DNA of 64,000 bases from Eggerthellaceae bacterium UBA3686. GTDB lineage: Bacteria; Actinomycetota; Coriobacteriia; Coriobacteriales; Eggerthellaceae. Position 1 is the first letter of the stretch; each line of letters starts with the position of its first letter. Where the stretch lies: positions 30,207-94,206 of the forward strand of contig DFIX01000019.1 in NCBI GenBank assembly GCA_002371495.1. The letters are read 5' to 3'. The notes under the pieces were generated by a model, which saw only the letters and a list, made by a program, of their open reading frames with translations, did not search any database and was not told the origin of the DNA. Shown here piece by piece: positions 1,171-12,707 of this stretch. Both the position numbers and the translations under genes were made by a program.

Positions 1171-2838
1171 TTACATCCTGCTCGCAAACTTGTTTATGCC
1201 CTCTTCGTCGATGACCACCTTCATCGCCCACGGTGGCACCGATGGCGTATGCGCCTCGCCCGTGTCCATGAACACGAACGCCGTATCGTAATCGGGCGCG
1301 GCCTCTGGGTACTGCCCCAGACCGTCGGTGAAGTAGATAAGCCCCTTCATGTCGGTCAGCTCGCCGCGCTTGCGCAGGCTGTCCACGTAGCCGAACACCG
1401 GGCGAAAGTCGGTCCCGCCCATACCCCGCACGAAGAAGCCGTCCATGAATGCGTCGACATCGGCCAAATCGGTTATCTTCGTATCCGCCTGCACCTTCGC
1501 ATCACATTGAATCACGTGTATGTTGACCGAATGCGCGAAGTCCTCCTGCTTCTTGATTATGCCGAAGGTATGCTCGACAAAGCGCTTCACAAGCTCGCCC
1601 TTGCACGATTCAGACGTATCGATGGCGATGACGAAATCGCGGATGCGCTGCGTCTCTTTGTACTCGAGCGGCTCGACGAGCGGCATGTCGCCGTATAGTT
1701 CGAGACCGTAGGTGTAAAAGACGTAGTCGTACTCGTCGTCGTTGATCTTCATCTCTTCCGAGAGCATGGTGAAGCGTCTGAGAAAATCGGCGTAATCGTA
1801 GCGCTTGCGGTTCGCCACTTTCAGGCTGGCTATGAGCGAGCCCGCCTCGTCCCCCCATTCGGCCGAGAACGTCTCGAGGTTCATCTCGACCTGCTTGGCG
1901 ATTTCTTCCCAATCGCGCTCTTCTTCTGACTTCTGATCGTTGACTTCGCGCTCGTTGTCCTGGGTGTTCGACGAACCGTGCCAGTCACCCGAAACGTTGT
2001 CTTCGGCATCGTCGCCCTCGGCGGTATCTTGCGCATCGGCCGACGAACCCTCGGCGTCTTGGCTCTCGTCGCTCGACTCCTCGCCCTCGTTGTTCTGCAT
2101 CTCCTCGACGTCCTGCTCGGCGGCTTCCGCATCGCCGTCGGCCAGCATTTCGCGCATCTGGTCCTCGGGAGCATCGCCCTCGGCGTCGTCGTCCTGCTGC
2201 GCGAGCTCCTCGACCTCGCCTGGAACCTCTTCGGCCTGACCTTTCGAATACGACGGCCACGCCTCGTGGTTGTCGCGCTCGAAAAGCGCCATGTACTCGG
2301 TGAACTTGTCTTGCGTAAGCCCCAGGTACGTAGTGCCCTGCGGCGCCGTGAGCGCTTTCAGGAACAGCTGGTACAGAGACCCGGGTGCGATTTTGCCACA
2401 CATGAGGCTCAGCTCCGAGAGCGCTCCCCGACGGCTCTTGTCGAGCTCGCTCTCGAAGCGGCCGGCGCACAGCTCCATCGCCACGCTCTCGGCTACGACA
2501 TCACAGGCAAGCCACCAGGCGTCGTGTCGGGGATGATTTTCGTCGAAGGGATGCCTGAAGATGCAGTGCATCACCAAATGCAGGTAGTCTCGCACCTGCT
2601 CGTCGAACGATTCCTCGAAGCGCCCGACTACGGCATAGGGTTCGAAGTACACCTTCTTGCCGTCGGTCGCCATCGGGTAGCGCCCCTGCACATGTACCGC
2701 TTCGGATGGCATGCGCCAAAGCGCCAGGTCAAGGAAACGAAACTTCAACATGAGCGAAACGCGCGATTCCTCGATGATCTCGAGTGCGACCTTTTCGGCC
2801 TGAAGCCAGCGCTGTTGCTTTTCGTCTAGTTGGACCAT
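1171..2838 (-). CDS. VWA-domain protein of the DUF2201 type: N-terminal metallopeptidase-like domain, acidic linker, C-terminal VWA domain
   Basis: 555-aa ORF. MIDAS motif DTSES (FVIAIDTSESC), followed by GGTDF and YFTDG. The N-domain motif LHLVMHCIFRH sits where this family usually has HExxH. A D/E-rich linker of about 125 aa spans roughly 1881-2256. ATG at 2838 lies 9 nt after the LRR gene stop. Confidence 0.8.
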   Translation of the reverse strand: MVQLDEKQQRWLQAEKVALEIIEESRVSLMLKFRFLDLALWRMPSEAVHVQGRYPMATDGKKVYFEPYAVVGRFEESFDEQVRDYLHLVMHCIFRHPFDENHPRHDAWWLACDVVAESVAMELCAGRFESELDKSRRGALSELSLMCGKIAPGSLYQLFLKALTAPQGTTYLGLTQDKFTEYMALFERDNHEAWPSYSKGQAEEVPGEVEELAQQDDDAEGDAPEDQMREMLADGDAEAAEQDVEEMQNNEGEESSDESQDAEGSSADAQDTAEGDDAEDNVSGDWHGSSNTQDNEREVNDQKSEEERDWEEIAKQVEMNLETFSAEWGDEAGSLIASLKVANRKRYDYADFLRRFTMLSEEMKINDDEYDYVFYTYGLELYGDMPLVEPLEYKETQRIRDFVIAIDTSESCKGELVKRFVEHTFGIIKKQEDFAHSVNIHVIQCDAKVQADTKITDLADVDAFMDGFFVRGMGGTDFRPVFGYVDSLRKRGELTDMKGLIYFTDGLGQYPEAAPDYDTAFVFMDTGEAHTPSVPPWAMKVVIDEEGINKFASRM

Positions 2839-2847
2839 GTCTTAATC

Positions 2848-5130
2848 CTACAAATCGAAGTCGAATGCAGCACGGCCGAAGCGGGTGCGTTTCAGCTCGA
2901 GCAGATAGCCGCTCATGGCGGCATCCTGCAACCCGCTTACTGCAACGATAACCGTCTCGATATTATCAGCGTTCAGGTACCCGAAATCGGCAAGGGCTCC
3001 CATAAGGGCGCGATCGTCATGACGCGCCGTGTCAACGCAGATCTCGACTGCATGTTCGCGCAAGGTCCGCTCGAAAAGCGACCGGTTGACGCCTGTCAGC
3101 AAAATGGGGTCTTTGAAGCGCTCGACAATTAACCGAGCCTGCTCGTAGGCCGTCACGCCATCGCCTTTGCGAGCAGTGTAATCATGGGCGTTTGCCAGGC
3201 AGTTGTCGAAGTGCTTCATCATATCGGGCACGTTCACCCAACTCGACCCGCCGAGCGCCAAGCTGATCTCATGAATCGACCGGGCCGTGTCGGGAAACCT
3301 GAACTCGAAGACGGTCCTCCCCTCGAGCGGTTTTTTCAATTCGACCTTGATATGCTCGATGAAAGACCATGTAAGGAGCCCCGACGAACCGATGGTCTTG
3401 AGATTGGGCCCTAGATAAATTGACTTGATGTTACGGCAGTTGCTGAAAGCATACGATTCGATGTGCTTCACGCGCTCGGGTATGGCGACGTCTTCTACCG
3501 AATTGTCGAACAGAATCGCTCGATCGCCGTCCTCGCCCCGCTCGCACAGGATACCCGATTCAACGTAAAAGCGCGTATTAGCCGGGTCAGCAGAGATCTT
3601 CGCAATCGAGGGCGGCTCGACCAGGCGATGTGCACCTGCGGTGACAAATGCGTCGGCTCCTATGCTCTGCAGGGCAGCCGGAATGAAGAGCTCGGTCAGC
3701 GACGAGTCAATAAATGCCTCTTTGCCAATAGCCCTCAACGTCGACGGAAAGGTGACCGAGCGCAGCTTTCTGCAGACCCTGAAAGCGCTGTCGCCAATCT
3801 GCTCGACGCCTTCCGGAACCTCGACTTCCTCTATCGTTTCGTGAAATGCGAAAGCATACGATTCAACGACATGCGTCCCATCAACAATCTTGAACGCAGC
3901 GACAGTCGGATCAATCAGCTGCACGAATCGCAAGTATTCACCGTCTTGTTTGTAGAGTCCACCGTTTCCATCGTAGAAATACAGCGGGTTCTGGCTCGAT
4001 ACCGCAAACGTTGCACCTTCGCCCGTGTATACAACGTTGGTGTTCTGAACGATGCAGTTCCCTATAAAGCGCACCGAAGCAGGCACCACAATTCCTTCGA
4101 GCCCCGAACCGGCAAATGCATAGGCGGCGATACTCTCTAGGCCCGCGTTCAACGTAACGTGAGAAAGCTCCTTGCAATGAAAAAACGAGCGCTCACCAAT
4201 GGTCTTAAGCGAACATCCGCATTCGAGCCTCTTCAAGCCGGTATGCGCGAACGCGTAGTCTTCGAGCACCTCCAAAGAGTCAGGCATTACCACCTGTTCG
4301 AGTTTCAGGACGCCCATACACGCTTTCTTCGCGACCCGCTTGCATCCATTTTGAATTATCAATTTCTTGACCGGACGGGCAAGCGCTATGAGGGTCTTTC
4401 CGTCTTTTGCGTAAAGCGCATCGCCATCGCAATCGATAAATGGATTGTCAGCAGCTACCTCAATGACCTTGAGCTGTGTCTTTTCAAATGCGCCCGGGAG
4501 CACGTTCTTTACGTTTTTGCCGATGATTAGCGTCTGCAAAGAGGGATTCTCGAATACTTCGCCGGTAATCTTCTCGAGCATGCCGGGCAATACGATGGTC
4601 TTGATCTTTGGACACTGCGACAGCCACGTGGCCGAGAATTCGACGACGTCTTTCGGAAAACGGACGTACTCGAGATTCTCATTCATCCTAAAGGCGCACA
4701 GCCCGATTGTTTTAACGCTGTCAGGACATATTATTCGCCGCACCGACCCAAGCTCCGCACATGCATCAGCGCTAATAGCATACACAGGCAGGCCTTCGAT
4801 GCTGCTAGGAATCTCGAGCGTCTCTTCAGCTGTCCTGCAACGCGTGATTCTGACCATGCTTTGGTCGACGATTCTGTAAGTCCATACCGTCTTATCGCCA
4901 CAAGAATAGGTATACGGCTTTGACGAGCGCGCATATTCGAGGTCTCGCAGCCGCTTTGCTTCAGCTTGCTTGCGCTTATACTCGATTTCCATGCGTTCAA
5001 GCTGCTCTTTCGAAGCAGTCACTCCGTCCATTGCGGTCGGCGAAAAACCACCGAACGTAACAGCCAATGTTGCTATCGCAGAAACGCCATCGCCTATAGC
5101 CAAAATACCCTCGCTATAATCGTTAAGCAA
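2848..5130 (-). CDS. BspA-type leucine-rich-repeat protein with no recognisable signal peptide and a helical C-terminal domain
   Basis: 760-aa ORF with repeated ~23-aa LRR_5-like units (e.g. VEVPEGVEQIGDSAFRVCRKLRSVTFPSTLRAIGKEAF). An N-terminal coiled-coil-like stretch reads KEQLERMEIEYKRKQAEAKRL. The track start is TTG and the true start is uncertain. Sample lines are only 47-50% GC. Confidence 0.75.
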   Translation of the reverse strand: MLNDYSEGILAIGDGVSAIATLAVTFGGFSPTAMDGVTASKEQLERMEIEYKRKQAEAKRLRDLEYARSSKPYTYSCGDKTVWTYRIVDQSMVRITRCRTAEETLEIPSSIEGLPVYAISADACAELGSVRRIICPDSVKTIGLCAFRMNENLEYVRFPKDVVEFSATWLSQCPKIKTIVLPGMLEKITGEVFENPSLQTLIIGKNVKNVLPGAFEKTQLKVIEVAADNPFIDCDGDALYAKDGKTLIALARPVKKLIIQNGCKRVAKKACMGVLKLEQVVMPDSLEVLEDYAFAHTGLKRLECGCSLKTIGERSFFHCKELSHVTLNAGLESIAAYAFAGSGLEGIVVPASVRFIGNCIVQNTNVVYTGEGATFAVSSQNPLYFYDGNGGLYKQDGEYLRFVQLIDPTVAAFKIVDGTHVVESYAFAFHETIEEVEVPEGVEQIGDSAFRVCRKLRSVTFPSTLRAIGKEAFIDSSLTELFIPAALQSIGADAFVTAGAHRLVEPPSIAKISADPANTRFYVESGILCERGEDGDRAILFDNSVEDVAIPERVKHIESYAFSNCRNIKSIYLGPNLKTIGSSGLLTWSFIEHIKVELKKPLEGRTVFEFRFPDTARSIHEISLALGGSSWVNVPDMMKHFDNCLANAHDYTARKGDGVTAYEQARLIVERFKDPILLTGVNRSLFERTLREHAVEICVDTARHDDRALMGALADFGYLNADNIETVIVAVSGLQDAAMSGYLLELKRTRFGRAAFDFDL

Positions 5131-5226: not shown

Positions 5227-5550
5227 TTACTTGCGCAATCTACCAGCTGAGTCAAATTTACGTCGCGGTTCGATTTCATCACCGTAGATGATGCAGTAGC
5301 GCGTGCCCTTTAGAGTAACAATAAGGCTCGCCACGACCGGGGCACCCTCGTTACCGTGGTCGTAAACCTGGTACGTCAGCAGCTCTCGATCGAACATCTC
5401 TTGATACACTGGGTTATTCTCAATCTTGCTCAGCAGCACGTTTGTGGGTTCGCGACCGAGCTCGTCCTGCCGAAGGGCAATGTTATACAGAATGTTTTCC
5501 TGCTCTTCCGAAAGACGTCCTTCAGCCCTGATTTCCTCTTCTGTAGCCAT
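5227..5550 (-). CDS. hypothetical 107-aa protein
   Basis: ATG preceded by GGAAGGTG about 12 nt upstream. No motif recognised. It lies 96 nt upstream of the LRR gene on the same strand, in the same lower-GC stretch. Confidence 0.5.
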   Translation of the reverse strand: MATEEEIRAEGRLSEEQENILYNIALRQDELGREPTNVLLSKIENNPVYQEMFDRELLTYQVYDHGNEGAPVVASLIVTLKGTRYCIIYGDEIEPRRKFDSAGRLRK

Positions 5551-5636: not shown

Positions 5637-5664
5637 AAAAAAGGGGGCGGCCTAAGCCGCCCCC
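5637..5664 (-). terminator. Rho-independent terminator closing the Mo-enzyme operon
   Basis: Minus strand reads GGGGGCGGC-TTAG-GCCGCCCCC followed by TTTTTT, 28 nt after the stop of the 93-aa gene. Confidence 0.75.
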
Positions 5665-5691: not shown

Positions 5692-5973
5692 CTACCAAGG
5701 AACCTCGCGGCCCTTGAACTCATGCGGATCCCCGCGCCAGCCGTCGCCTTCCTGAGCATACTCGTTGCCAGAACGCTTCGTGCTGGTGTAACCAGACCAT
5801 GCGCGGGCCATGAACTTGTCCTTGACCCAGAAGATGTTCTGCTTCATCAGCTCAGCAGCGTCGAGCTCATACTCAGCCAGAGCCTCATCCTTGGACTTTC
5901 CAGCAGCAACAGCCTCATTCAGAAGCTTAGCAATCTCGCTGTTGTCAAGCGCCAAAAGCTCTTCACGATCCAT
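5692..5973 (-). CDS. hypothetical 93-aa protein; third gene of the Mo-enzyme operon
   Basis: ORF MDREELLALDNSEIAKLLNEAVAAG...GDGWRGDPHEFKGREVPW. It lies 65 nt downstream of the 119-aa gene and is followed by a strong terminator. No cysteines and no recognised family. Confidence 0.55.
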   Translation of the reverse strand: MDREELLALDNSEIAKLLNEAVAAGKSKDEALAEYELDAAELMKQNIFWVKDKFMARAWSGYTSTKRSGNEYAQEGDGWRGDPHEFKGREVPW

Positions 5974-6038: not shown

Positions 6039-6398
6039 TTAGAGACGGAACAGAACGGTCGGGCGATCAAATTCCTGCATCTTTGCGAACATCTCGTCAA
6101 GAGTGCCATAGTACATAGATGCGGACTCTTCAACCTGGACAGCAACCGGACGCTGACCAGCCTTGTCGCCGCCAGCTCCCCAGTGCTCAGAGAAGATGGA
6201 CGTCGGGCAAGGAATGTAGAACCATTCCCAAGCGTCGCCCGTGTCACCCTCGCCCTTGCGGAAGGGGCCGACCTGGACTTCCTTGATACCAAACTGCTCG
6301 AGCGGGAGACCCAGTTCTTCCTTGCAGGCAATCTCTGCTGCGTGATTGCCGGAGAAGTAAGTGTAGTCAACGAGCAGGCCGTATTGAGTGTCTGCCAT
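6039..6398 (-). CDS. degenerate, cysteine-depleted ferredoxin-like small subunit of the molybdopterin enzyme
   Basis: 119 aa with only 2 Cys. The N-terminus QYGLLVDYTYFSGNHAAEIACKEE aligns by eye with the canonical beta-subunit start QYGxVIDxxxCIGCxxCxxACKxEN. The C-terminal PVAVQVEESASMYYGTLDE aligns with PACVxxCPxxAxxFGDxxD. It starts 19 nt after the large-subunit stop. Confidence 0.6.
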   Translation of the reverse strand: MADTQYGLLVDYTYFSGNHAAEIACKEELGLPLEQFGIKEVQVGPFRKGEGDTGDAWEWFYIPCPTSIFSEHWGAGGDKAGQRPVAVQVEESASMYYGTLDEMFAKMQEFDRPTVLFRL

Positions 6399-6417
6399 TA
6401 AGATCTTCCCCTTTCGA

Positions 6418-8757
6418 TTAGTCCTCGTCGAGGCTGCGGACGCGCTTCATGTTGCACATGACACCCTTGTAGGGAGCGCCGAAGCCAAGCTTGCCGATGT
6501 TCTGGTGCGGGACCAGCGAGTTGAAGTTGGACTTCCACACGCCGAACAGGTTGGGCTCTTCGCCGTCCTGCTCGGGGTACCACCAACCATGAGCGCAGTT
6601 GATGATGCCGGGCTTCAGAACAGGAGTAATCTCTGCCTTGAAGCGAGCCTCGCCGAACATGTTGTAAACCTCGACCCAGTCGCCCTCGGTGATGCCATAT
6701 TCCTTGGCGGTCTCGGGCGGAATCTGGACCCATGCCCACGGGTCGATCTGACGCAGGGACGGAACCTGACGATGCTCGGAGTGGAAGGAGCTGTAACGAC
6801 GAGAACCGGAGGTGGAGATCAGCGGATAAGCCTCGGCGTCCTGCGGACGGCTGACCTGCGAGTAGTTCGGCTCCTCGTAGTAAGGCAGCGGATCCTCGCC
6901 CCAAGAGGCGTAGAGGATGGAGTTAGCCTCGATCTGGCCGGTGATGGTGTTGAAGCCAGGCTCGCCGTCGAAGCGGAGCAGGCCCTTCTCGTACTTCTTG
7001 TACTCGAAGCCATGAGCACCAGGCTGATACAGACCCTCTTCACGGAGGTCGTTGAAGTCCATGTTCAGCTCAGCAAGCTGATCGCTGAAGAACTTGTCGA
7101 CGGCCTTGTCGAGCTCGGTACGGTCGATGGCAGCGCCATCCTTGTCGCCCGGCATCCACTCGGGATCGAGCCACGGCCACCAAGACGGATTCAGCTTGGA
7201 ACCGAACATCAGGCAGATCTCGATGTCGGACATGCACTCGCCGACCTGCAGGGCCTTGTTCATCGGGCCCATGAACACGGTGTTGCGGCCATAGTGGGTG
7301 AGGACGATGCCGTCATGCTCAGCCCAAGTGGCCATCGGGAGGAAGTAATCGCCAACAGCCATGGCCGTCGGGGTCATCCAGAGGTCCTGGATTACGCAGA
7401 ACTCGATGGACTCGAGCAGCGCCTTGTGCCAACGCTTCGGCTGAGCCGAGCAGGTCGGCGCCAGGAAGTTGGAGCTGTTGAACCAGGCCATACGCAGCTG
7501 ATACGGCTGCTTGGTCTCCATGGTGTTCAGCGTCTCGTCGGGCTGGGTGGTAGCCATGCCGGTGGACAGGCCAGGCCACTGGGCAGCGCCGATACGCTTC
7601 TGCCAAACCTCGTCGTCCATAGCGCCACGCTGCTCCATGCGCCACTTGCCGAGCAGAGCAGACGGAGGACCGAGGGTCAGGCCACCAGGCGAGTCGATCG
7701 AGCCAGCCAGAGCGGCCAGGAGGATCATTGCCTGGGACAGCTGAACGCCGTTCTTGTTCTGGTCAAATGCGAGGCCCCAAGCCCAGCCGATCGGGCGCTC
7801 GGTGCCGATGATATGAGCGACCTTCTCGATGGTCTCGACGGAAACCGTCGTGATCTCGGAGACCTTCTCGACCGGATACTCAGCGGCGCGCTCTTTGAGC
7901 TCGTCGATGCCGAAGATCCAGTTCTCGGCCATCTCATGATCGTACTCGTCGTTCTGGAACATGAGGTTCATAACGCCGAGGGCGAAAGCGGTGTCGGTCT
8001 GCGGACGGACCTGAACATTGATGTTGCCATCATGAGCGCCAACCCAGGTAACACGCGGGTCAACGGAGATGATGTGGGTGCCACGCTTCATCATGTCGAC
8101 GAGGCAGTGACCGAAGAAACCGTCGCCGTTGGAAGGCAGCGGCTCCTTGCCCCAAACAACAACCCACTTGGAAAGCGTGTAACGCGGGTCGTCATAGGAG
8201 CCAGGCAGGTGGCCTGCATAGTCGAGCTCGGGGTAGCCAGCGCCGAGGACATAGTCGGCGATGGAGCAACGAGGACCGTAGCAAGACCAACCAGACTGCG
8301 TGTAGCAGCAGTTCGGCGACTTCAGAACGGAGAACGTCAGAGCATAGTAGTAAATGCATGCCTCACGGCCGGTGCCGCCGAAGCAAACGATGGACTCGGG
8401 GCCGCCATTAGCGGGATCCCAGTAGTAACGAACCTTCTCGACGATGGTCTCGAGGCACTCGTCCCAAGAGGTGCGCTCCCACTTGTCTTTACCACGATCC
8501 TCAACCGCACGCTTCATCGGGTAGATGATGCGGTCAGGATGATGGGTGTACTCACGCAGAGCGAGGTTCAAGGCGTTAACACGGCCCGTGGTGATCGGGT
8601 TGTTATCGTCACCCTCGATACGGATCAGCTTGCCATCCTTGGTGACCACCTTGACGCCGTATCCTACGGGGTGAGATCCCGGAGGAGACCAAGTGTTGGA
8701 ACGGGTGACGATAGTACCGTCGGGCATTTCGGTACGCCACTCCTTGGAATAAGCCAT
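6418..8757 (-). CDS. molybdopterin (bis-MGD) oxidoreductase-family catalytic subunit, acetylene-hydratase / pyrogallol-transhydroxylase / catechol-dehydroxylase-like, cytoplasmic
   Basis: 779 aa from ATG 8757, with AAGGAG 8 nt upstream; the track ORF extends to 8793. Typical family blocks are present: KDGKLIRIEGD, HPDRIIYPMKR, VDPRVTW, and a C-terminal molybdopterin-binding block GDWVEVYN...KPGIINCAHGWW. There is no RR leader and no Cys in the FS0 region. Confidence 0.9.
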   Translation of the reverse strand: MAYSKEWRTEMPDGTIVTRSNTWSPPGSHPVGYGVKVVTKDGKLIRIEGDDNNPITTGRVNALNLALREYTHHPDRIIYPMKRAVEDRGKDKWERTSWDECLETIVEKVRYYWDPANGGPESIVCFGGTGREACIYYYALTFSVLKSPNCCYTQSGWSCYGPRCSIADYVLGAGYPELDYAGHLPGSYDDPRYTLSKWVVVWGKEPLPSNGDGFFGHCLVDMMKRGTHIISVDPRVTWVGAHDGNINVQVRPQTDTAFALGVMNLMFQNDEYDHEMAENWIFGIDELKERAAEYPVEKVSEITTVSVETIEKVAHIIGTERPIGWAWGLAFDQNKNGVQLSQAMILLAALAGSIDSPGGLTLGPPSALLGKWRMEQRGAMDDEVWQKRIGAAQWPGLSTGMATTQPDETLNTMETKQPYQLRMAWFNSSNFLAPTCSAQPKRWHKALLESIEFCVIQDLWMTPTAMAVGDYFLPMATWAEHDGIVLTHYGRNTVFMGPMNKALQVGECMSDIEICLMFGSKLNPSWWPWLDPEWMPGDKDGAAIDRTELDKAVDKFFSDQLAELNMDFNDLREEGLYQPGAHGFEYKKYEKGLLRFDGEPGFNTITGQIEANSILYASWGEDPLPYYEEPNYSQVSRPQDAEAYPLISTSGSRRYSSFHSEHRQVPSLRQIDPWAWVQIPPETAKEYGITEGDWVEVYNMFGEARFKAEITPVLKPGIINCAHGWWYPEQDGEEPNLFGVWKSNFNSLVPHQNIGKLGFGAPYKGVMCNMKRVRSLDED

Positions 8758-9150
8758 ACTGTTACTCCTTTTCTCGTTTACCCTCGGAAACAAAGAGACT
8801 TATACGCCGCGACCTTACGGTTGCATCGCTCTGATCGAACCCGATTAGAATCGGCTCTAGGGGTAAGCCAGCACCTTTCGGATACGTCAGACAGCTAATC
8901 GATTTACCTTACCCTCCCGTTTGCTCGCACCAATCGGCAAGTGGCTGGAATGGTGTTTGCATATTTGGCCAGGTAAATGACGAGCAGCCGAAATTCCTCT
9001 TCGCTTCCCTTTTAATACTGCTGGTACCACTCGCAATCTCATTGGTTTCATCTGGGGCAATGAGCGTAGTAATACCAACGTGCCTATTCTAGCAGCATTG
9101 TGAATCTTGGCAAGCAACGTATTTGCTGATGCCTTAATCTATTTTCAGAA

Positions 9151-9263: not shown

Positions 9264-9749
9264 TTATAAGCCGTATTGCGCGGCGAATTCGCTGCCGTCG
9301 TGCTTCACGGGCGGCTTCCAATCACCCTCGGGCTCTTCAACCGAAAGGATTTCGACCTCGAAGGTGAGGTTCTTGCCCGCCAGAGGGTGGTTCATGTCGA
9401 ATGTGACTTCCTTCTCGGTGATGTTTTTAATGGTGACGGGGAACTTCTCGCCGTCGTCACCCGTCATCCAGATGCGCATGCCGATTTCGATGTTCTTCAG
9501 CGGCACCTGCTCGACCGGAACGGCCTCGAGCAACCCGTCGAGGTATTCGCCGTAGCCGTCGTATTCGTTGAGGGTGAACGTCTTCTTCTCGCCGGCCTCC
9601 ATGGTCATGATCTCGCGCTCGAAACCGGGGATGGTCAGATCCATGCCGGTCTGGAACTCCATGGGCTGTTCGGTCTTTGCATAACCGAATACGGTGCCAT
9701 CGTCGAGGGTGCCCGTGTACAGCAGTCGGACAGTCGAGCCAAGTTTCAT
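9264..9749 (-). CDS. FKBP-type peptidyl-prolyl cis-trans isomerase, SlyD-like (FKBP domain with IF-flap insert)
   Basis: 161 aa. Starts VRLLYTGTLDDGTVF and ends ...FDMNHPLAGKNLTFEVEILSVEE, the typical SlyD-type architecture. No His-rich tail. Confidence 0.85.
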   Translation of the reverse strand: MKLGSTVRLLYTGTLDDGTVFGYAKTEQPMEFQTGMDLTIPGFEREIMTMEAGEKKTFTLNEYDGYGEYLDGLLEAVPVEQVPLKNIEIGMRIWMTGDDGEKFPVTIKNITEKEVTFDMNHPLAGKNLTFEVEILSVEEPEGDWKPPVKHDGSEFAAQYGL

Positions 9750-10078: not shown

Positions 10079-10333
10079 TTACGCGCCGGGGGCCTTGGGG
10101 GCGCCGGGGGCCTTGGGGGCGCCAGGAGCGCCGGGGGCCTTGGGGGCGCCAGGAGCGCCAGCTGCAGGAGCCGCGCCGGGCAGAGGCTTCTCGCCGTTCA
10201 GGTACGGGGTGAAGTCTTCCTTGCAGAACGGGCACTTGTCAAGCGTAATGCCCGCCATCATCTGGATGGGCTTCCCGCATCCAGGGCACTTCATCGGGCC
10301 GCCGCCGCCAGCATCAGATGGTCTAAAGCACAT
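10079..10333 (-). CDS. small zinc-ribbon protein with a C-terminal (A/G)PGAPK repeat tail
   Basis: 84 aa. ATG at 10333 has AAGGAGG 7 nt upstream. CPGCG...CPFC forms a four-Cys ribbon. The tail reads GAAPAAGAPGAPKAPGAPGAPKAPGAPKAPGA. Confidence 0.6.
   Translation of the reverse strand: MCFRPSDAGGGGPMKCPGCGKPIQMMAGITLDKCPFCKEDFTPYLNGEKPLPGAAPAAGAPGAPKAPGAPGAPKAPGAPKAPGA
10083..10160. repeat. imperfect 18/27-nt tandem repeat encoding the PGAPK tail
   Basis: GCGCCGGGGGCCTTGGGG occurs at 10083-10100 and 10101-10118. A 27-nt variant with a GCGCCAGGA insertion follows. Confidence 0.8.
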
Positions 10334-10619: not shown

Positions 10620-10985
10620 GTACGAGCAGCGGCTCTCTGTGTTATTATGCTCTGATGTAGGTTTCGTGAGCGAATGCCTACAAATGAGCGCTTGGCTTAG
10701 GGGTGAAGATTCATCAGGCCTTGCGCATCGTAGAAAGAGAATCGTAGAAAGGAGGATCCCTGCAGTCGTTTCTTCCGTCCCATCGCTTCCACGCGGCGGG
10801 TCCGCTGTTTAGGGGACAGCTTGAATACGGAGGCGTCCGTAAGTCATGAATGCGAATGCGTCCGTGATTTCCCGCCCGCAAGCGCGCAGACGGTATTGCC
10901 ACTGCAGTGAGAGCTGAGGCTCACGGCTTCAAATCAATTGGGGATAGAAGCCGCTTACTTGAATAATCCTTTAAAGGAGGGATTG

Positions 10986-12707
10986 ATGGATAACAAAGAG
11001 TTTACCGTCTCTGAGGTTATCGACTCATTCGGTATCAACGGTCATACCTGGCTGATGTTCATCCTGCTGGGCCTGGCAAACATCTTCGACGGTTATGACT
11101 TCATGGTCATTAACGTCACGAACAGCTACGTCGCAGCCACGTTCTGGCCCGACGCTTTCGCGCTGAACGACGCTGGCAAGATGGCTCTTCAGCCGCAGTA
11201 CTCGGCCCTCATGGGCTCGCTGACCACCTGGGGCCTGCTGGGCATGGTGCTCGGCGGTGCTACCGGCGGCATCCTCTCTGACCGCATTGGTCGTAAGAAG
11301 ATGCTGACCATCGCCGTTCTGTTCTACGGCGTGTTCACCCTGCCGCAGGCGTTCGCTAACGACGTGTACTTCTTCGCAGCGTTCCGTCTGATCGCCGGCT
11401 TCGGCGTCGGCTCCTGCATCCCGGTTGTTACGACCTGCTTCTCTGAGACCATCCCGTCTCAGCACCGTGGCGTGTTCGTGACCTTCGGCATGGCCTTCAT
11501 GGTCGCCGGCTGGGTGCTCGCAGGCCTGATCGGCAACCCGATTGCTTCGAACACCGCTTCGATCATCCCTGGCTTCACCGATGGTGCCATCAAGACCGCA
11601 GCTTCCCTGCGTCCTGACGGAACCGAGGTCATCTTCTGCCAGAACTGGCGCCTTTGCTACCTGATCGGCGCTCTGCCCATCGTGTACGGCATTGCCCTGT
11701 TCTTCCTGATGCATGAAACTCCGCACTGGTACGCCAACAGTGGCCAGAAGGAGAAGGCTTGCCAGGCTCTTATGGACATCGCCCATAAGCATCATGACGA
11801 CAAGGCTCATTACGACGCCAACCTGCTCGTCGTTCCTCCGAAACCTGCAAACGTCGGCCCGAACGTACTGTTCTCCAAGAAGTACATCGTCGCTACCGCT
11901 GCTATTTGGTGCACCTACTTCGTGGGCCAGTTCTGCGTGTACGGCATGAACGCTTGGATTCCGACCTGGTTCCAGGGCGTTGGCTACTCTGCAGCTGACT
12001 CCACGAACCTGCAGACTTGGAACAACTTCGCAGCTATCCTTTCGAACGTGTCCGTAGGCTTCGTCTCTGACCGCATCGGCCGTAAGAAGAACCTCGCCGC
12101 GTCCTGGATTGCCTGCATCGTCGCCATCGTTCTGTGCTCGATGTTCGTCCAGCCCAACAACATGGTGCTGTGCGTCATCCTGATGCTGCTGTTCGGCTTC
12201 TGCCTGAACTACGCCATCACGGCTGTCCAGCCGCTGATGCCCGAGAGCTATCCGACCGCCCTGCGTAACACCGGCGTCGCTTGGTGCCAGGCGTTCGCTC
12301 GCTTCGGTGGTTCCGGCTCCTCCATCGTCCTCGGCGCAATCGCTGGTTCTGCTATGTTCCAGACCGACGGTGCCACCAACTGGTCGATGGTCGTGCTCGT
12401 CCTCATCGTTCCGTTCATCCTCGGCTTCATCTGCACGATCCTGTTCGTGCGCGAGACCGGCGGCAAGACGATGGACCAGCTGGCTGCAGAAGCAACGACC
12501 GAAGACAAGTCCGATACTGGTCAGACTCAGTTCATCATCATGATGATCGTGGCTGCCATCCTCTTCGTCCTCTGCATCGTTTGCCCGCTCGTGGTTAACG
12601 GTTGGTCGAAGAGCCCGATGGCTCTGCCGCTGATGACCATCGGCATGCTGCTCCCGTTCGTCTACTTCTTCATCTTCGCAACTCCGCAGATCAAGAACTC
12701 CAAGTAG
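10986..12707 (+). CDS. MFS transporter, aromatic-acid/H+ symporter-like, with an extra C-terminal membrane module
   Basis: ATG 10986 is preceded by AAAGGAGGG. Duplicated motif A: SDRIGRKKMLT and SDRIGRKKNLA. After the usual end (RETGGKTMDQL) come about 70 further residues with two hydrophobic segments. Confidence 0.9.
   Translation: MDNKEFTVSEVIDSFGINGHTWLMFILLGLANIFDGYDFMVINVTNSYVAATFWPDAFALNDAGKMALQPQYSALMGSLTTWGLLGMVLGGATGGILSDRIGRKKMLTIAVLFYGVFTLPQAFANDVYFFAAFRLIAGFGVGSCIPVVTTCFSETIPSQHRGVFVTFGMAFMVAGWVLAGLIGNPIASNTASIIPGFTDGAIKTAASLRPDGTEVIFCQNWRLCYLIGALPIVYGIALFFLMHETPHWYANSGQKEKACQALMDIAHKHHDDKAHYDANLLVVPPKPANVGPNVLFSKKYIVATAAIWCTYFVGQFCVYGMNAWIPTWFQGVGYSAADSTNLQTWNNFAAILSNVSVGFVSDRIGRKKNLAASWIACIVAIVLCSMFVQPNNMVLCVILMLLFGFCLNYAITAVQPLMPESYPTALRNTGVAWCQAFARFGGSGSSIVLGAIAGSAMFQTDGATNWSMVVLVLIVPFILGFICTILFVRETGGKTMDQLAAEATTEDKSDTGQTQFIIMMIVAAILFVLCIVCPLVVNGWSKSPMALPLMTIGMLLPFVYFFIFATPQIKNSK

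Follow-up and report, generated by a model that had tools for sequence, protein, structure and literature searches.

Loss of cluster ligands from a ferredoxin-type partner protein and from its predicted bis-MGD catalytic subunit in Eggerthellaceae

A 119-residue protein is encoded directly downstream of a large-subunit oxidoreductase-family gene on a 64,000-nucleotide stretch of contig DFIX01000019.1 (positions 30,207 to 94,206) from Eggerthellaceae bacterium UBA3686, assembly GCA_002371495.1; this whole stretch is called the window, and coordinates below refer to it. Judged by profile comparison, the small protein, termed beta, descends from a ferredoxin-type iron-sulfur (Fe-S) partner subunit of a bis-molybdopterin guanine dinucleotide (bis-MGD) molybdoenzyme, and the ligand sets of all three clusters of the pair, namely FS0 of the large subunit (alpha) and the two clusters of beta, are found to be lost. 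Strong purifying selection acts on both the alpha and the beta gene, which lie in a conserved operon. Beta is probably a cofactor-less scaffold subunit of a cytoplasmic alpha-beta or alpha-beta-gamma bis-MGD molybdo- or tungsto-enzyme of the acetylene-hydratase-like, Gordonibacter-type clade, in which the relay has been dismantled. The original prediction, made from the letters of the window, had presented beta as the relic of a four-cluster ferredoxin subunit whose middle repeats were deleted; the descent from a ferredoxin-type subunit is borne out, and the ancestor is revised below.

Results

The beta gene and its relatives

The product is preceded by a GGGGAA Shine-Dalgarno sequence 7-8 nt before its ATG, in a spacer that places it 19 nt after the catalytic subunit as originally described, both features being read directly from the sequence. 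The protein, with landmarks MADTQYGLLVDYTYFSGNHAAEIACKEE...PVAVQVEESASMYYGTLDE...VLFRL, contains exactly two Cys, C25 and C64, again in agreement with the original count, and several spurious open reading frames (ORFs) overlap it. Searched as a single sequence, beta has no match in Pfam and none in the PDB by phmmer; its sole match in NCBIfam is a weak one to DmsB (E 0.0087, residues 5-58), and its TIGR02951 score of 16 bits is far below the cutoff of 214. None of its 85 close homologues (counted as protein clusters, 42-96% identity) is annotated, and a profile of the relic family returns non-significant matches only from the PDB, though the proteins matched are of the expected type (PsrB, E 0.19).

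Profile A1, which was built from the beta homologues and contains the Cys-bearing protein P0072 discussed below, was used for an exhaustive HMMER search; 286 relatives have E<=1e-3, of which 110 have E<=1e-10, and E-values go down to 9e-25. These distant relatives are of essentially equal length (~110-125 aa), and the motif CxxCxxCxxxC is present in 123 of the 134 listed matches shorter than 300 aa, the remaining listed matches being mostly N-terminal truncations, frameshifts and relic-derived fragments. Alignment of 32 full-length members of this family, the mini-ferredoxins, reveals exactly eight invariant columns, all of them Cys (C15, C18, C21, C25, C69, C72, C84 and C88), in the pattern CxxCxxCxxxC ... 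CxxC ... CxxxC. Circularity was excluded by the use of a profile made from 26 Cys-less orthologues and zero Cys-bearing sequences, which hhalign aligns to the profile of the 32 eight-Cys proteins with a probability of 99.9% and an E-value of 9.3e-32 over 106 columns. Beta alone is 39% identical to the eight-Cys partner from Peptococcaceae (BLASTP, E 1e-24). The homology to mini-ferredoxin beta subunits of the 2x[4Fe-4S] type therefore extends over the full length of ~110-125 aa.

Members of the eight-Cys family match Pfam Fer4_2, Fer4_11 and Fer4, and the profile of the family finds PsrB/NrfC (2vpw_B, E 6.9e-16), ArrB (6cz7_B, E 1.6e-13) and FdhB (1h0h_B, E 5e-13) in the PDB, its N-terminal half corresponding to Cys group I of the four-cluster proteins and its C-terminal half to group IV. 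The homology of beta to Fe-S subunits becomes visible only through this intermediate family. The position-by-position alignment of the N-terminus that underlay the original prediction, with the first three Cys replaced by F, N and A and the fourth kept, is accordingly far above chance, as the hhalign comparison indicates. Cys groups II and III are missing throughout the mini-ferredoxin family, so that the relic is a two-cluster protein stripped of its ligands and not a four-cluster protein without its middle. The four-cluster subunits of complex iron-sulfur molybdoenzymes have four Cys groups, 16 Cys and ~160-300 aa, and the 119 residues of beta hold counterparts to groups I and IV only. The originally proposed deletion of middle repeats is thus contradicted by the existence of eight-Cys two-cluster relatives of the same length.

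Ligand columns of beta

Only one of the eight ligand columns that define the mini-ferredoxins still holds Cys in beta (Table 1), and four of the replaced columns now carry aromatic or small residues, F15, A21, F69 and A86. With one ligand of eight left, the ancestral ligand set is unable to hold either [4Fe-4S] cluster, so that Fe-S binding by this route is, as far as the residues tell, impossible, and the same statement in the original prediction is upheld. The inventory of losses given there was right at both ends of the protein, including the loss of both C-terminal Cys (C7 to A86, C8 to E90), but it overlooked the middle CxxC pair, in which C5 has become F69 and C6 has become H72.

Table 1. 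Residues at the cluster-ligand columns of beta (C1-C8) and at the FS0 columns of alpha, in Cys-bearing relatives and in the relic group.
Column	Cys-bearing relatives	Window protein	Relic group
beta C1	C	F15	F or Y
beta C2	C	N18	nearly invariant
beta C3	C	A21	invariant
beta C4	C	C25 (kept)	C in most orthologues; G, A or T in some
beta C5	C	F69	invariant
beta C6	C	H72	variable (H, Y, A, K, W, M, F)
beta C7	C	A86, within PVAVQVEE	invariant
beta C8	C	E90, within PVAVQVEE	E or D
alpha 33	C 51/54	N33	N 54/57
alpha 45	C 50/54	Y45	Y 54/57
alpha 73	C 53/54	N73	N 53/57
alpha 76	C 50/54	N76	N 55/57

Predicted structure of beta

An AlphaFold2 (AF2) model of beta was obtained on a deeper, combined alignment that includes Cys-bearing relatives, this being the second of two models, and it has a mean predicted local distance difference test score (pLDDT) of 92.5. 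Foldseek against the PDB places Fe-S subunits of Mo/W enzymes in all five top positions for this model (PsrB, FdnH, FdhB, 6sdr_B and an AOR Fe-S subunit), with query-normalised template modelling (TM) scores of 0.47-0.60. The best match is PsrB (E 2.6e-3, probability 1.00, query-normalised TM-score 0.60), and FdnH, FdhB and 6sdr_B have probabilities of 0.98-1.00. A ferredoxin-type fold like that of solved beta subunits is therefore predicted for beta, subject to the composition of the alignment on which the model depends. The similarity to DmsB-type subunits that the original prediction had proposed to look for is thus found at both levels, in sequence through the eight-Cys family and in the model through PsrB.

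The alpha subunit has lost FS0

Alpha is a bis-MGD large subunit of the dimethyl sulfoxide (DMSO) reductase family. The program-derived ORF extends from a TTG at 8793 (6418..8793, 791 aa), and the start was assigned to the ATG at 8757 on the basis of homologues beginning MAYSKEW and of an AAGGAG box; residue numbers given here for alpha are those of the TTG ORF, from which 12 must be subtracted for the ATG start. Pfam identifies Molybdopterin (PF00384) and Molydop_binding (PF01568) domains, acetylene hydratase (2e7z, E 1.3e-63) is the solved structure nearest to alpha in sequence, and the N-terminus MAYSKEW has no twin-arginine (RR) motif. Alpha is 55% identical to P0345, the alpha of a Gordonibacter sp. 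metagenome-assembled genome (MAG).

The FS0 domain family PF04879 scores 14.3 bits on the window alpha, below its cutoff of 22.7. The match is gone in alpha homologues of at least 67% identity, except for the mosaic protein P0285 (69%), and present in those of at most 59% identity, except for P0296 (58%). In an alignment of 110 homologues and the window protein, comprising a relic clade (n=57) and FS0-bearing relatives (n=54, 56-61% identical), all four Cys of the relatives' FS0 motif are replaced in the relic clade by residues that are themselves nearly uniform (Table 1). The relic clade has Met or Leu in place of the Arg that lies between the last two FS0 Cys in 100% of the relatives, and 13 of the 32 clade-discriminating substitutions of alpha fall within residues 30-83. 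The original prediction had placed the loss of ligands in the small subunit, which is confirmed for beta, but the parallel loss of the FS0 Cys from alpha had gone unnoticed.

The remainder of alpha is conserved. Cys171, the counterpart in the alignment of the Cys that binds tungsten in acetylene hydratase, is present in every sequence of the relic clade (57/57) and of the FS0-bearing relatives (54/54), and 232 of 791 alpha positions are identical in the two groups alike. Alpha thus shares with the Gordonibacter-type catechol dehydroxylases an acetylene-hydratase-like bis-MGD architecture, the absence of any signal for twin-arginine translocation (Tat) and the presence of the Mo-ligand residue. 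Given that the FS0 Cys are lost while Cys171 and the 232 positions are kept, the alpha-beta pair looks like a cofactor-competent Mo/W enzyme from which the entire Fe-S relay has been removed, a prediction that concerns the encoded residues.

Selection and distribution

Against 13 orthologues from Gordonibacter, Ellagibacter, Adlercreutzia, Raoultibacter, Paraeggerthella, Slackia and MAGs, the ratio of nonsynonymous to synonymous substitution rates (dN/dS) of beta is 0.03-0.14 at dS of 0.35-1.5, and the length is constant at 119 codons with zero indels. A genome scan for the relic operon yielded 124 loci, of which 80 were kept for the analysis of synteny. The gene order alpha-beta-h93-h107, in which h93 is the third gene (gamma), is essentially invariant in these 80 loci, and identity to the window is 79-96% for alpha and 79-98% for beta. 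The operon is present in ~80 Eggerthellaceae genomes, belonging to the six genera named above and to MAGs, and the closest loci (93-98% identity) are in Eggerthellaceae MAGs from ruminant and other animal guts. The locus is apparently single-copy and syntenic across Eggerthellaceae. The original prediction had allowed that orthologues with full Cys motifs would make the window copy a decaying pseudogene, but 58 of 59 relatives of at least 110 aa lack the first Cys motif, and the dN/dS values likewise speak against decay.

The single relative with that motif, P0072 (L087:90-455), is an eight-Cys-type beta with an internal relic-type segment (…HWGTGGDKAGQRPLAVQVEESASMYYGTLEE…). It was considered as an intermediate with an intact first Cys motif and given no weight, being a mosaic on a 989-nt contig of 1.1x coverage; gene conversion or an assembly artefact or chimera is possible. 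A similar candidate, P0285 (L089:1998-4349), was considered as an orthologous alpha retaining the FS0 Cys. Identity to the window alpha is 30-57% over its first ~240 aa, which bear FS0-type Cys, and 83-89% over the remainder, and P0285 adjoins a frameshifted relic beta (L089:4361-4744); for these reasons it was not counted as an orthologue with intact motifs. L089 may have been joined wrongly in assembly, or it may be a genuine recombinant that carries a decaying copy.

Cys-bearing loci

The alpha-beta-gamma-MFS layout, where MFS denotes a transporter of the major facilitator superfamily, is found with intact Cys in Peptococcaceae and Gordonibacter relatives. The three loci described next, and the published accounts of these enzymes, agree that an eight-Cys mini-ferredoxin is what normally accompanies alpha in the acetylene-hydratase-like, Gordonibacter-type clade. 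In L090 (Peptococcaceae) an alpha of 745 aa is followed by a beta of 111 aa matching Fer4_11, a 78-aa gene and then an MFS transporter, and in L088 (Gordonibacter sp. MAG) an alpha matching PF04879 is followed by a 115-aa eight-Cys beta and a 68-aa gene. In L085 three of the four FS0 Cys of the alpha P0296 (L085:5001-7334) are changed to His, Asp and Thr, and the accompanying beta (L085:7361-7720) is an intact eight-Cys protein; this locus is surrounded by a LuxR/GerE regulator, two MFS transporters, an FKBP gene and a zinc-ribbon gene. As a separate observation within the family, P0092 (L086:171-500) is a natural one-cluster mini-ferredoxin that has lost the ligands of one cluster (C4, C5 and C6) and keeps C1-C3, C7 and C8.

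Discussion

Comparison with known systems

The Gordonibacter-type catechol dehydroxylases (Dodh, Cldh, Eadh1-3) have small partner proteins described as '4Fe-4S' proteins (PMC7028382; bioRxiv 10.1101/2025.01.17.632430), and these enzymes have been called 'likely soluble protein complexes' and reported to have an MFS transporter as neighbour (PMC7028382). The relic locus resembles these systems in that beta is homologous to the partners (E 1e-24 to 1e-32), is of the same size (~110-125 aa) and lies directly 3' of a Tat-less, acetylene-hydratase-like alpha, with a small gamma gene immediately following and an MFS transporter nearby. It differs in the replacement of seven of the eight invariant Cys in beta, in the absence of FS0 from alpha, in a conserved gene block without a LuxR/GerE regulator, and in being apparently single-copy and conserved across genera, whereas the Gordonibacter-type systems occur as many strain-variable paralogues. 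The searchable literature yielded no description of a partner without Cys, of a member of this clade without FS0 or of a transhydroxylase in Gordonibacter; published descriptions call the partner a 4Fe-4S protein, and the combination of a cluster-less partner with an FS0-less alpha appears new in that no description of it was found.

Beta belongs to the same fold family as the four-cluster beta subunits PsrB/NrfC (2vpw_B), FdnH (1kqf_B), FdhB (1h0h_B), ArrB (6cz7_B) and DmsB, its halves corresponding to their groups I and IV. Unlike those subunits, all mini-ferredoxins lack groups II and III, which amount to two clusters and ~50-80 aa, and in the relic groups I and IV are in addition stripped of Cys. 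Alpha resembles the acetylene hydratase of Pelobacter acetylenicus (2e7z), its closest solved relative, in the aligned metal-ligand Cys. That enzyme is monomeric, with its FS0 [4Fe-4S] cluster in place and without a beta subunit, whereas the relic alpha lacks FS0 and is accompanied by a cluster-less beta. Since acetylene hydratase is a non-redox W enzyme, it provides a precedent in its clade for redox-neutral chemistry.

DorA, TorA and BisC are single-subunit Mo-bisMGD enzymes that lack FS0 and are still redox enzymes with a direct donor. These type III members of the DMSO reductase family resemble the relic alpha in having no Fe-S cluster in the catalytic subunit but have no ferredoxin-like partner and are distant from alpha (E ~1e-17). 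A further comparison is offered by the pyrogallol-phloroglucinol transhydroxylase (AthL/BthL, 4v4c), which, according to Messerschmidt 2004 as cited in PMC7028382, is a two-subunit cytoplasmic bis-MGD enzyme with an alpha lacking FS0, features shared with the relic pair as predicted. Its net reaction proceeds without external electrons, so that in the account cited there (Messerschmidt 2004, cited in PMC7028382) the Fe-S clusters of BthL have no evident catalytic role. BthL differs from the 119-aa beta in being a protein of 274 aa with three [4Fe-4S] clusters, an extra C-terminal domain and AthL as partner, none of which applies to beta. The eight-Cys profile matches it weakly (E 7.7e-4 over 31 residues, N-terminal), the Foldseek probability of beta against it is 0.54, and AthL is absent from the PDB sequence matches of alpha.

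A proposed scaffold without electron carriage

In the proposed scheme the ancestral beta would have been an eight-Cys mini-ferredoxin, presumably with two [4Fe-4S] clusters passing electrons to FS0 of alpha. In one orthologous group of Eggerthellaceae beta would then have lost seven of its eight ligands, and alpha all four FS0 Cys together with the neighbouring Arg, with the Mo/W-ligand Cys of alpha being retained. Beta may have been kept because alpha needs it for folding, stability, insertion of the molybdenum cofactor (Moco) or the shape of the complex, rather than for electron carriage, and the cavities left by the clusters may be filled by the Phe and Ala that replaced the ligands. A structural or assembly role for beta appears most likely, and we infer that the two subunits associate physically, that beta acts as scaffold and that the reaction is of one of the following types. 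With the Fe-S relay gone the holoenzyme would have to be either redox-neutral or directly reduced. The reaction might therefore be net redox-neutral at the metal, such as a hydration, or the isomerisation of an aromatic compound taken up by the cell or the transfer of a hydroxyl group on it, with precedents in acetylene hydratase and pyrogallol transhydroxylase, which belong to the family or stand close to it; alternatively, electrons might be taken up directly at the pterin or the metal, as in the FS0-less DorA, TorA and BisC.

Several points weigh against this interpretation. The alpha-beta complex is deduced and the Mo/W in alpha predicted, and the nature of the reaction is conjecture. The example of DorA, TorA and BisC makes the loss of FS0 compatible with redox chemistry. 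The Foldseek E-values of the good model are weak, from 2.6e-3 to 7e-2, and its ferredoxin-like shape is partly inherited from the Cys-bearing relatives in its alignment; the first AF2 model, made with relic-family sequences plus P0072, was poor, with a pLDDT of 68 and non-significant Foldseek matches. Finally, the occurrence of P0296 beside an intact eight-Cys beta indicates that loss of FS0 in alpha is separable from loss of clusters in beta. A more far-reaching version, in which an obligatory empty ferredoxin shell and the discarding of all three clusters accompany a redox-neutral conversion of an MFS-imported compound and constitute a new catalytic class in the family, is at present doubtful.

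Alternative explanations

Beta might be a maturation factor or chaperone for alpha, acting in Moco insertion or folding, instead of a permanent subunit. The tight operon coupling of beta with alpha and the recurrence of SlyD-like peptidyl-prolyl isomerase genes nearby would suit such a helper, and the data fit a stoichiometric subunit and a transient helper alike; nevertheless this is unlikely, given that the ancestral proteins are presumed to have been permanent electron-transfer subunits, that the related enzymes are described as soluble complexes (PMC7028382), and that the predicted fold and the length of beta are unchanged. It is improbable that the pair is a catalytically dead pseudoenzyme with a binding, sensing or scaffolding function, comparable to such cofactor-less, molybdopterin-like modules as QrcB and the NuoG C-terminal domain. 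The complete loss of the relay from both subunits would agree with this, as would a very high cross-genus conservation that is unusual for substrate-specialised dehydroxylases. However, Cys171 is invariant, 232 positions are shared with FS0-bearing relatives, the clade-specific changes cluster in the FS0 domain and not in the pterin-binding domains, and the MFS neighbour suggests a small-molecule substrate.

It is also improbable that beta binds a metal or other cofactor through new ligands, for example H19, E22, C25, H72, E90 or E91, in a redox or sensing role. Little or no variation is seen at H19, E22 and E91, and most orthologues have C25, but the Cys-bearing family likewise conserves H19 (GCHSC), which is therefore ancestral rather than a new ligand, C25 gives way to G, A or T in some orthologues, position 72 is variable, and Cys remains in a single ligand column, with Phe or Ala in four of the others. 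The reading that beta is a pseudogene in decay, or an ORF that arose by chance in GC-rich DNA, merits almost no credence and is the sole alternative that the data exclude. The lack of a Pfam match, the overlapping spurious ORFs and the frameshifted copy on the metagenomic contig L089 might have suggested it; against it stand the dN/dS range of 0.03-0.14, 119 codons without indels in 13 orthologues, occurrence at 124 genomic loci and in 85 protein clusters, and a proper Shine-Dalgarno sequence and ATG.

The relic group has consequences for annotation. Gordonibacter-type molybdoenzymes are mined as gut dehydroxylases of dietary and host catechols, including dopamine metabolites, lignans and urolithins, and their small partner is routinely annotated as a '4Fe-4S protein', a label that the relic group shows can be wrong. 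The relic enzyme is incompatible with the accepted electron path and so probably carries out a different reaction or uses a different electron donor, and the group is a warning that 'catechol dehydroxylase' function is not assignable by homology alone. For research on molybdoenzymes and on gut polyphenol metabolism, the relic also constitutes a natural experiment on what a ferredoxin-type beta contributes beyond electron transfer.

Operon and neighbouring genes

The features of the locus are collected in Table 2. Beta lies immediately 3' of alpha and is followed by the small gamma gene, with the MFS transporter nearby. Gamma is 39% identical to the Peptococcaceae gamma (BLASTP, E 1e-16), and gamma-like genes of 68-93 aa follow beta in Actinobacteria and Firmicutes (L090:8654-8890, L085:7798-8031, L088:7663-7869), sharing the motif ...GY(T/G)(S/T)T(K/Q)RSGNE(Y/H). 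No family was found for gamma, nor for h107, in Pfam and NCBIfam. The promoter-like site upstream of alpha and the strong hairpin after gamma fit an alpha-beta-gamma transcript at the level of pattern matches. A search of the alpha leader for a Moco or other riboswitch gave no Rfam match, and its fold z-score against shuffles is a mild -2.2.

Table 2. Features of the relic locus, with coordinates in the window.
Feature	Coordinates	Strand	Remarks
h107 hairpin, terminator-like	5182-5159		
h107	5227..5550	minus	107 aa; directly 3' of gamma in nearly all orthologous loci
Terminator-like hairpin after gamma	5643..5664	minus	9 G-C pairs then T-run; pattern scan only
Gamma (h93)	5692..5973	minus	93 aa; third operon gene; syntenic in all loci; kin follow beta in Cys-bearing systems too
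Beta relic gene	6039..6398	minus	ATG-initiated ORF, 119 aa
Alpha-beta spacer	6399..6417	minus	19 nt; GGGGAA Shine-Dalgarno
Alpha, bis-MGD large subunit	6418..8757	minus	779 aa; ATG at 8757, AAGGAG 7 nt upstream
Cys171 codon of alpha (GWSCYG)	8281..8283	minus	aligns with tungsten-ligand Cys of 2e7z ('wsCyg' vs 'ymCig')
Degenerate FS0 domain of alpha	8566..8697	minus	C-x11-C-x27-C-x2-C of relatives <=61% identical replaced by N33, Y45, N73, N76
Alpha leader	8758-9085	minus	~330 nt, between promoter-like site and alpha start
Promoter-like site	9086..9113	minus	TTGCCA-16-TAGAAT, extended -10 TG; ~330 nt upstream of alpha ATG; pattern scan, site count equal to chance expectation
SlyD-like FKBP peptidyl-prolyl isomerase	9264..9749	minus	Pfam FKBP_C 1.9e-13; NCBIfam PRK15095
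Zinc-ribbon protein	10079..10333	minus	CPGC...CPFC; long low-complexity Pro/Ala/Gly/Lys tail
MFS transporter	10938..12707	plus	589 aa; Pfam MFS_1 4.7e-48; kept beside relic operon in many genera

The FKBP gene recurs beside relic operons and at the Cys-bearing locus L085. The zinc-ribbon gene lies immediately upstream of alpha in most other genera, and zinc-ribbon genes are also found near the Cys-bearing operons L085 and L087. Downstream of the operon, at 1171-5130 on the minus strand, lie genes for a BspA-type LRR_5 protein of 760 aa and for a protein of 555 aa described as DUF2201 VWA-like or a putative metallopeptidase, and in many, not all, genera these two genes are likewise downstream of the operon.

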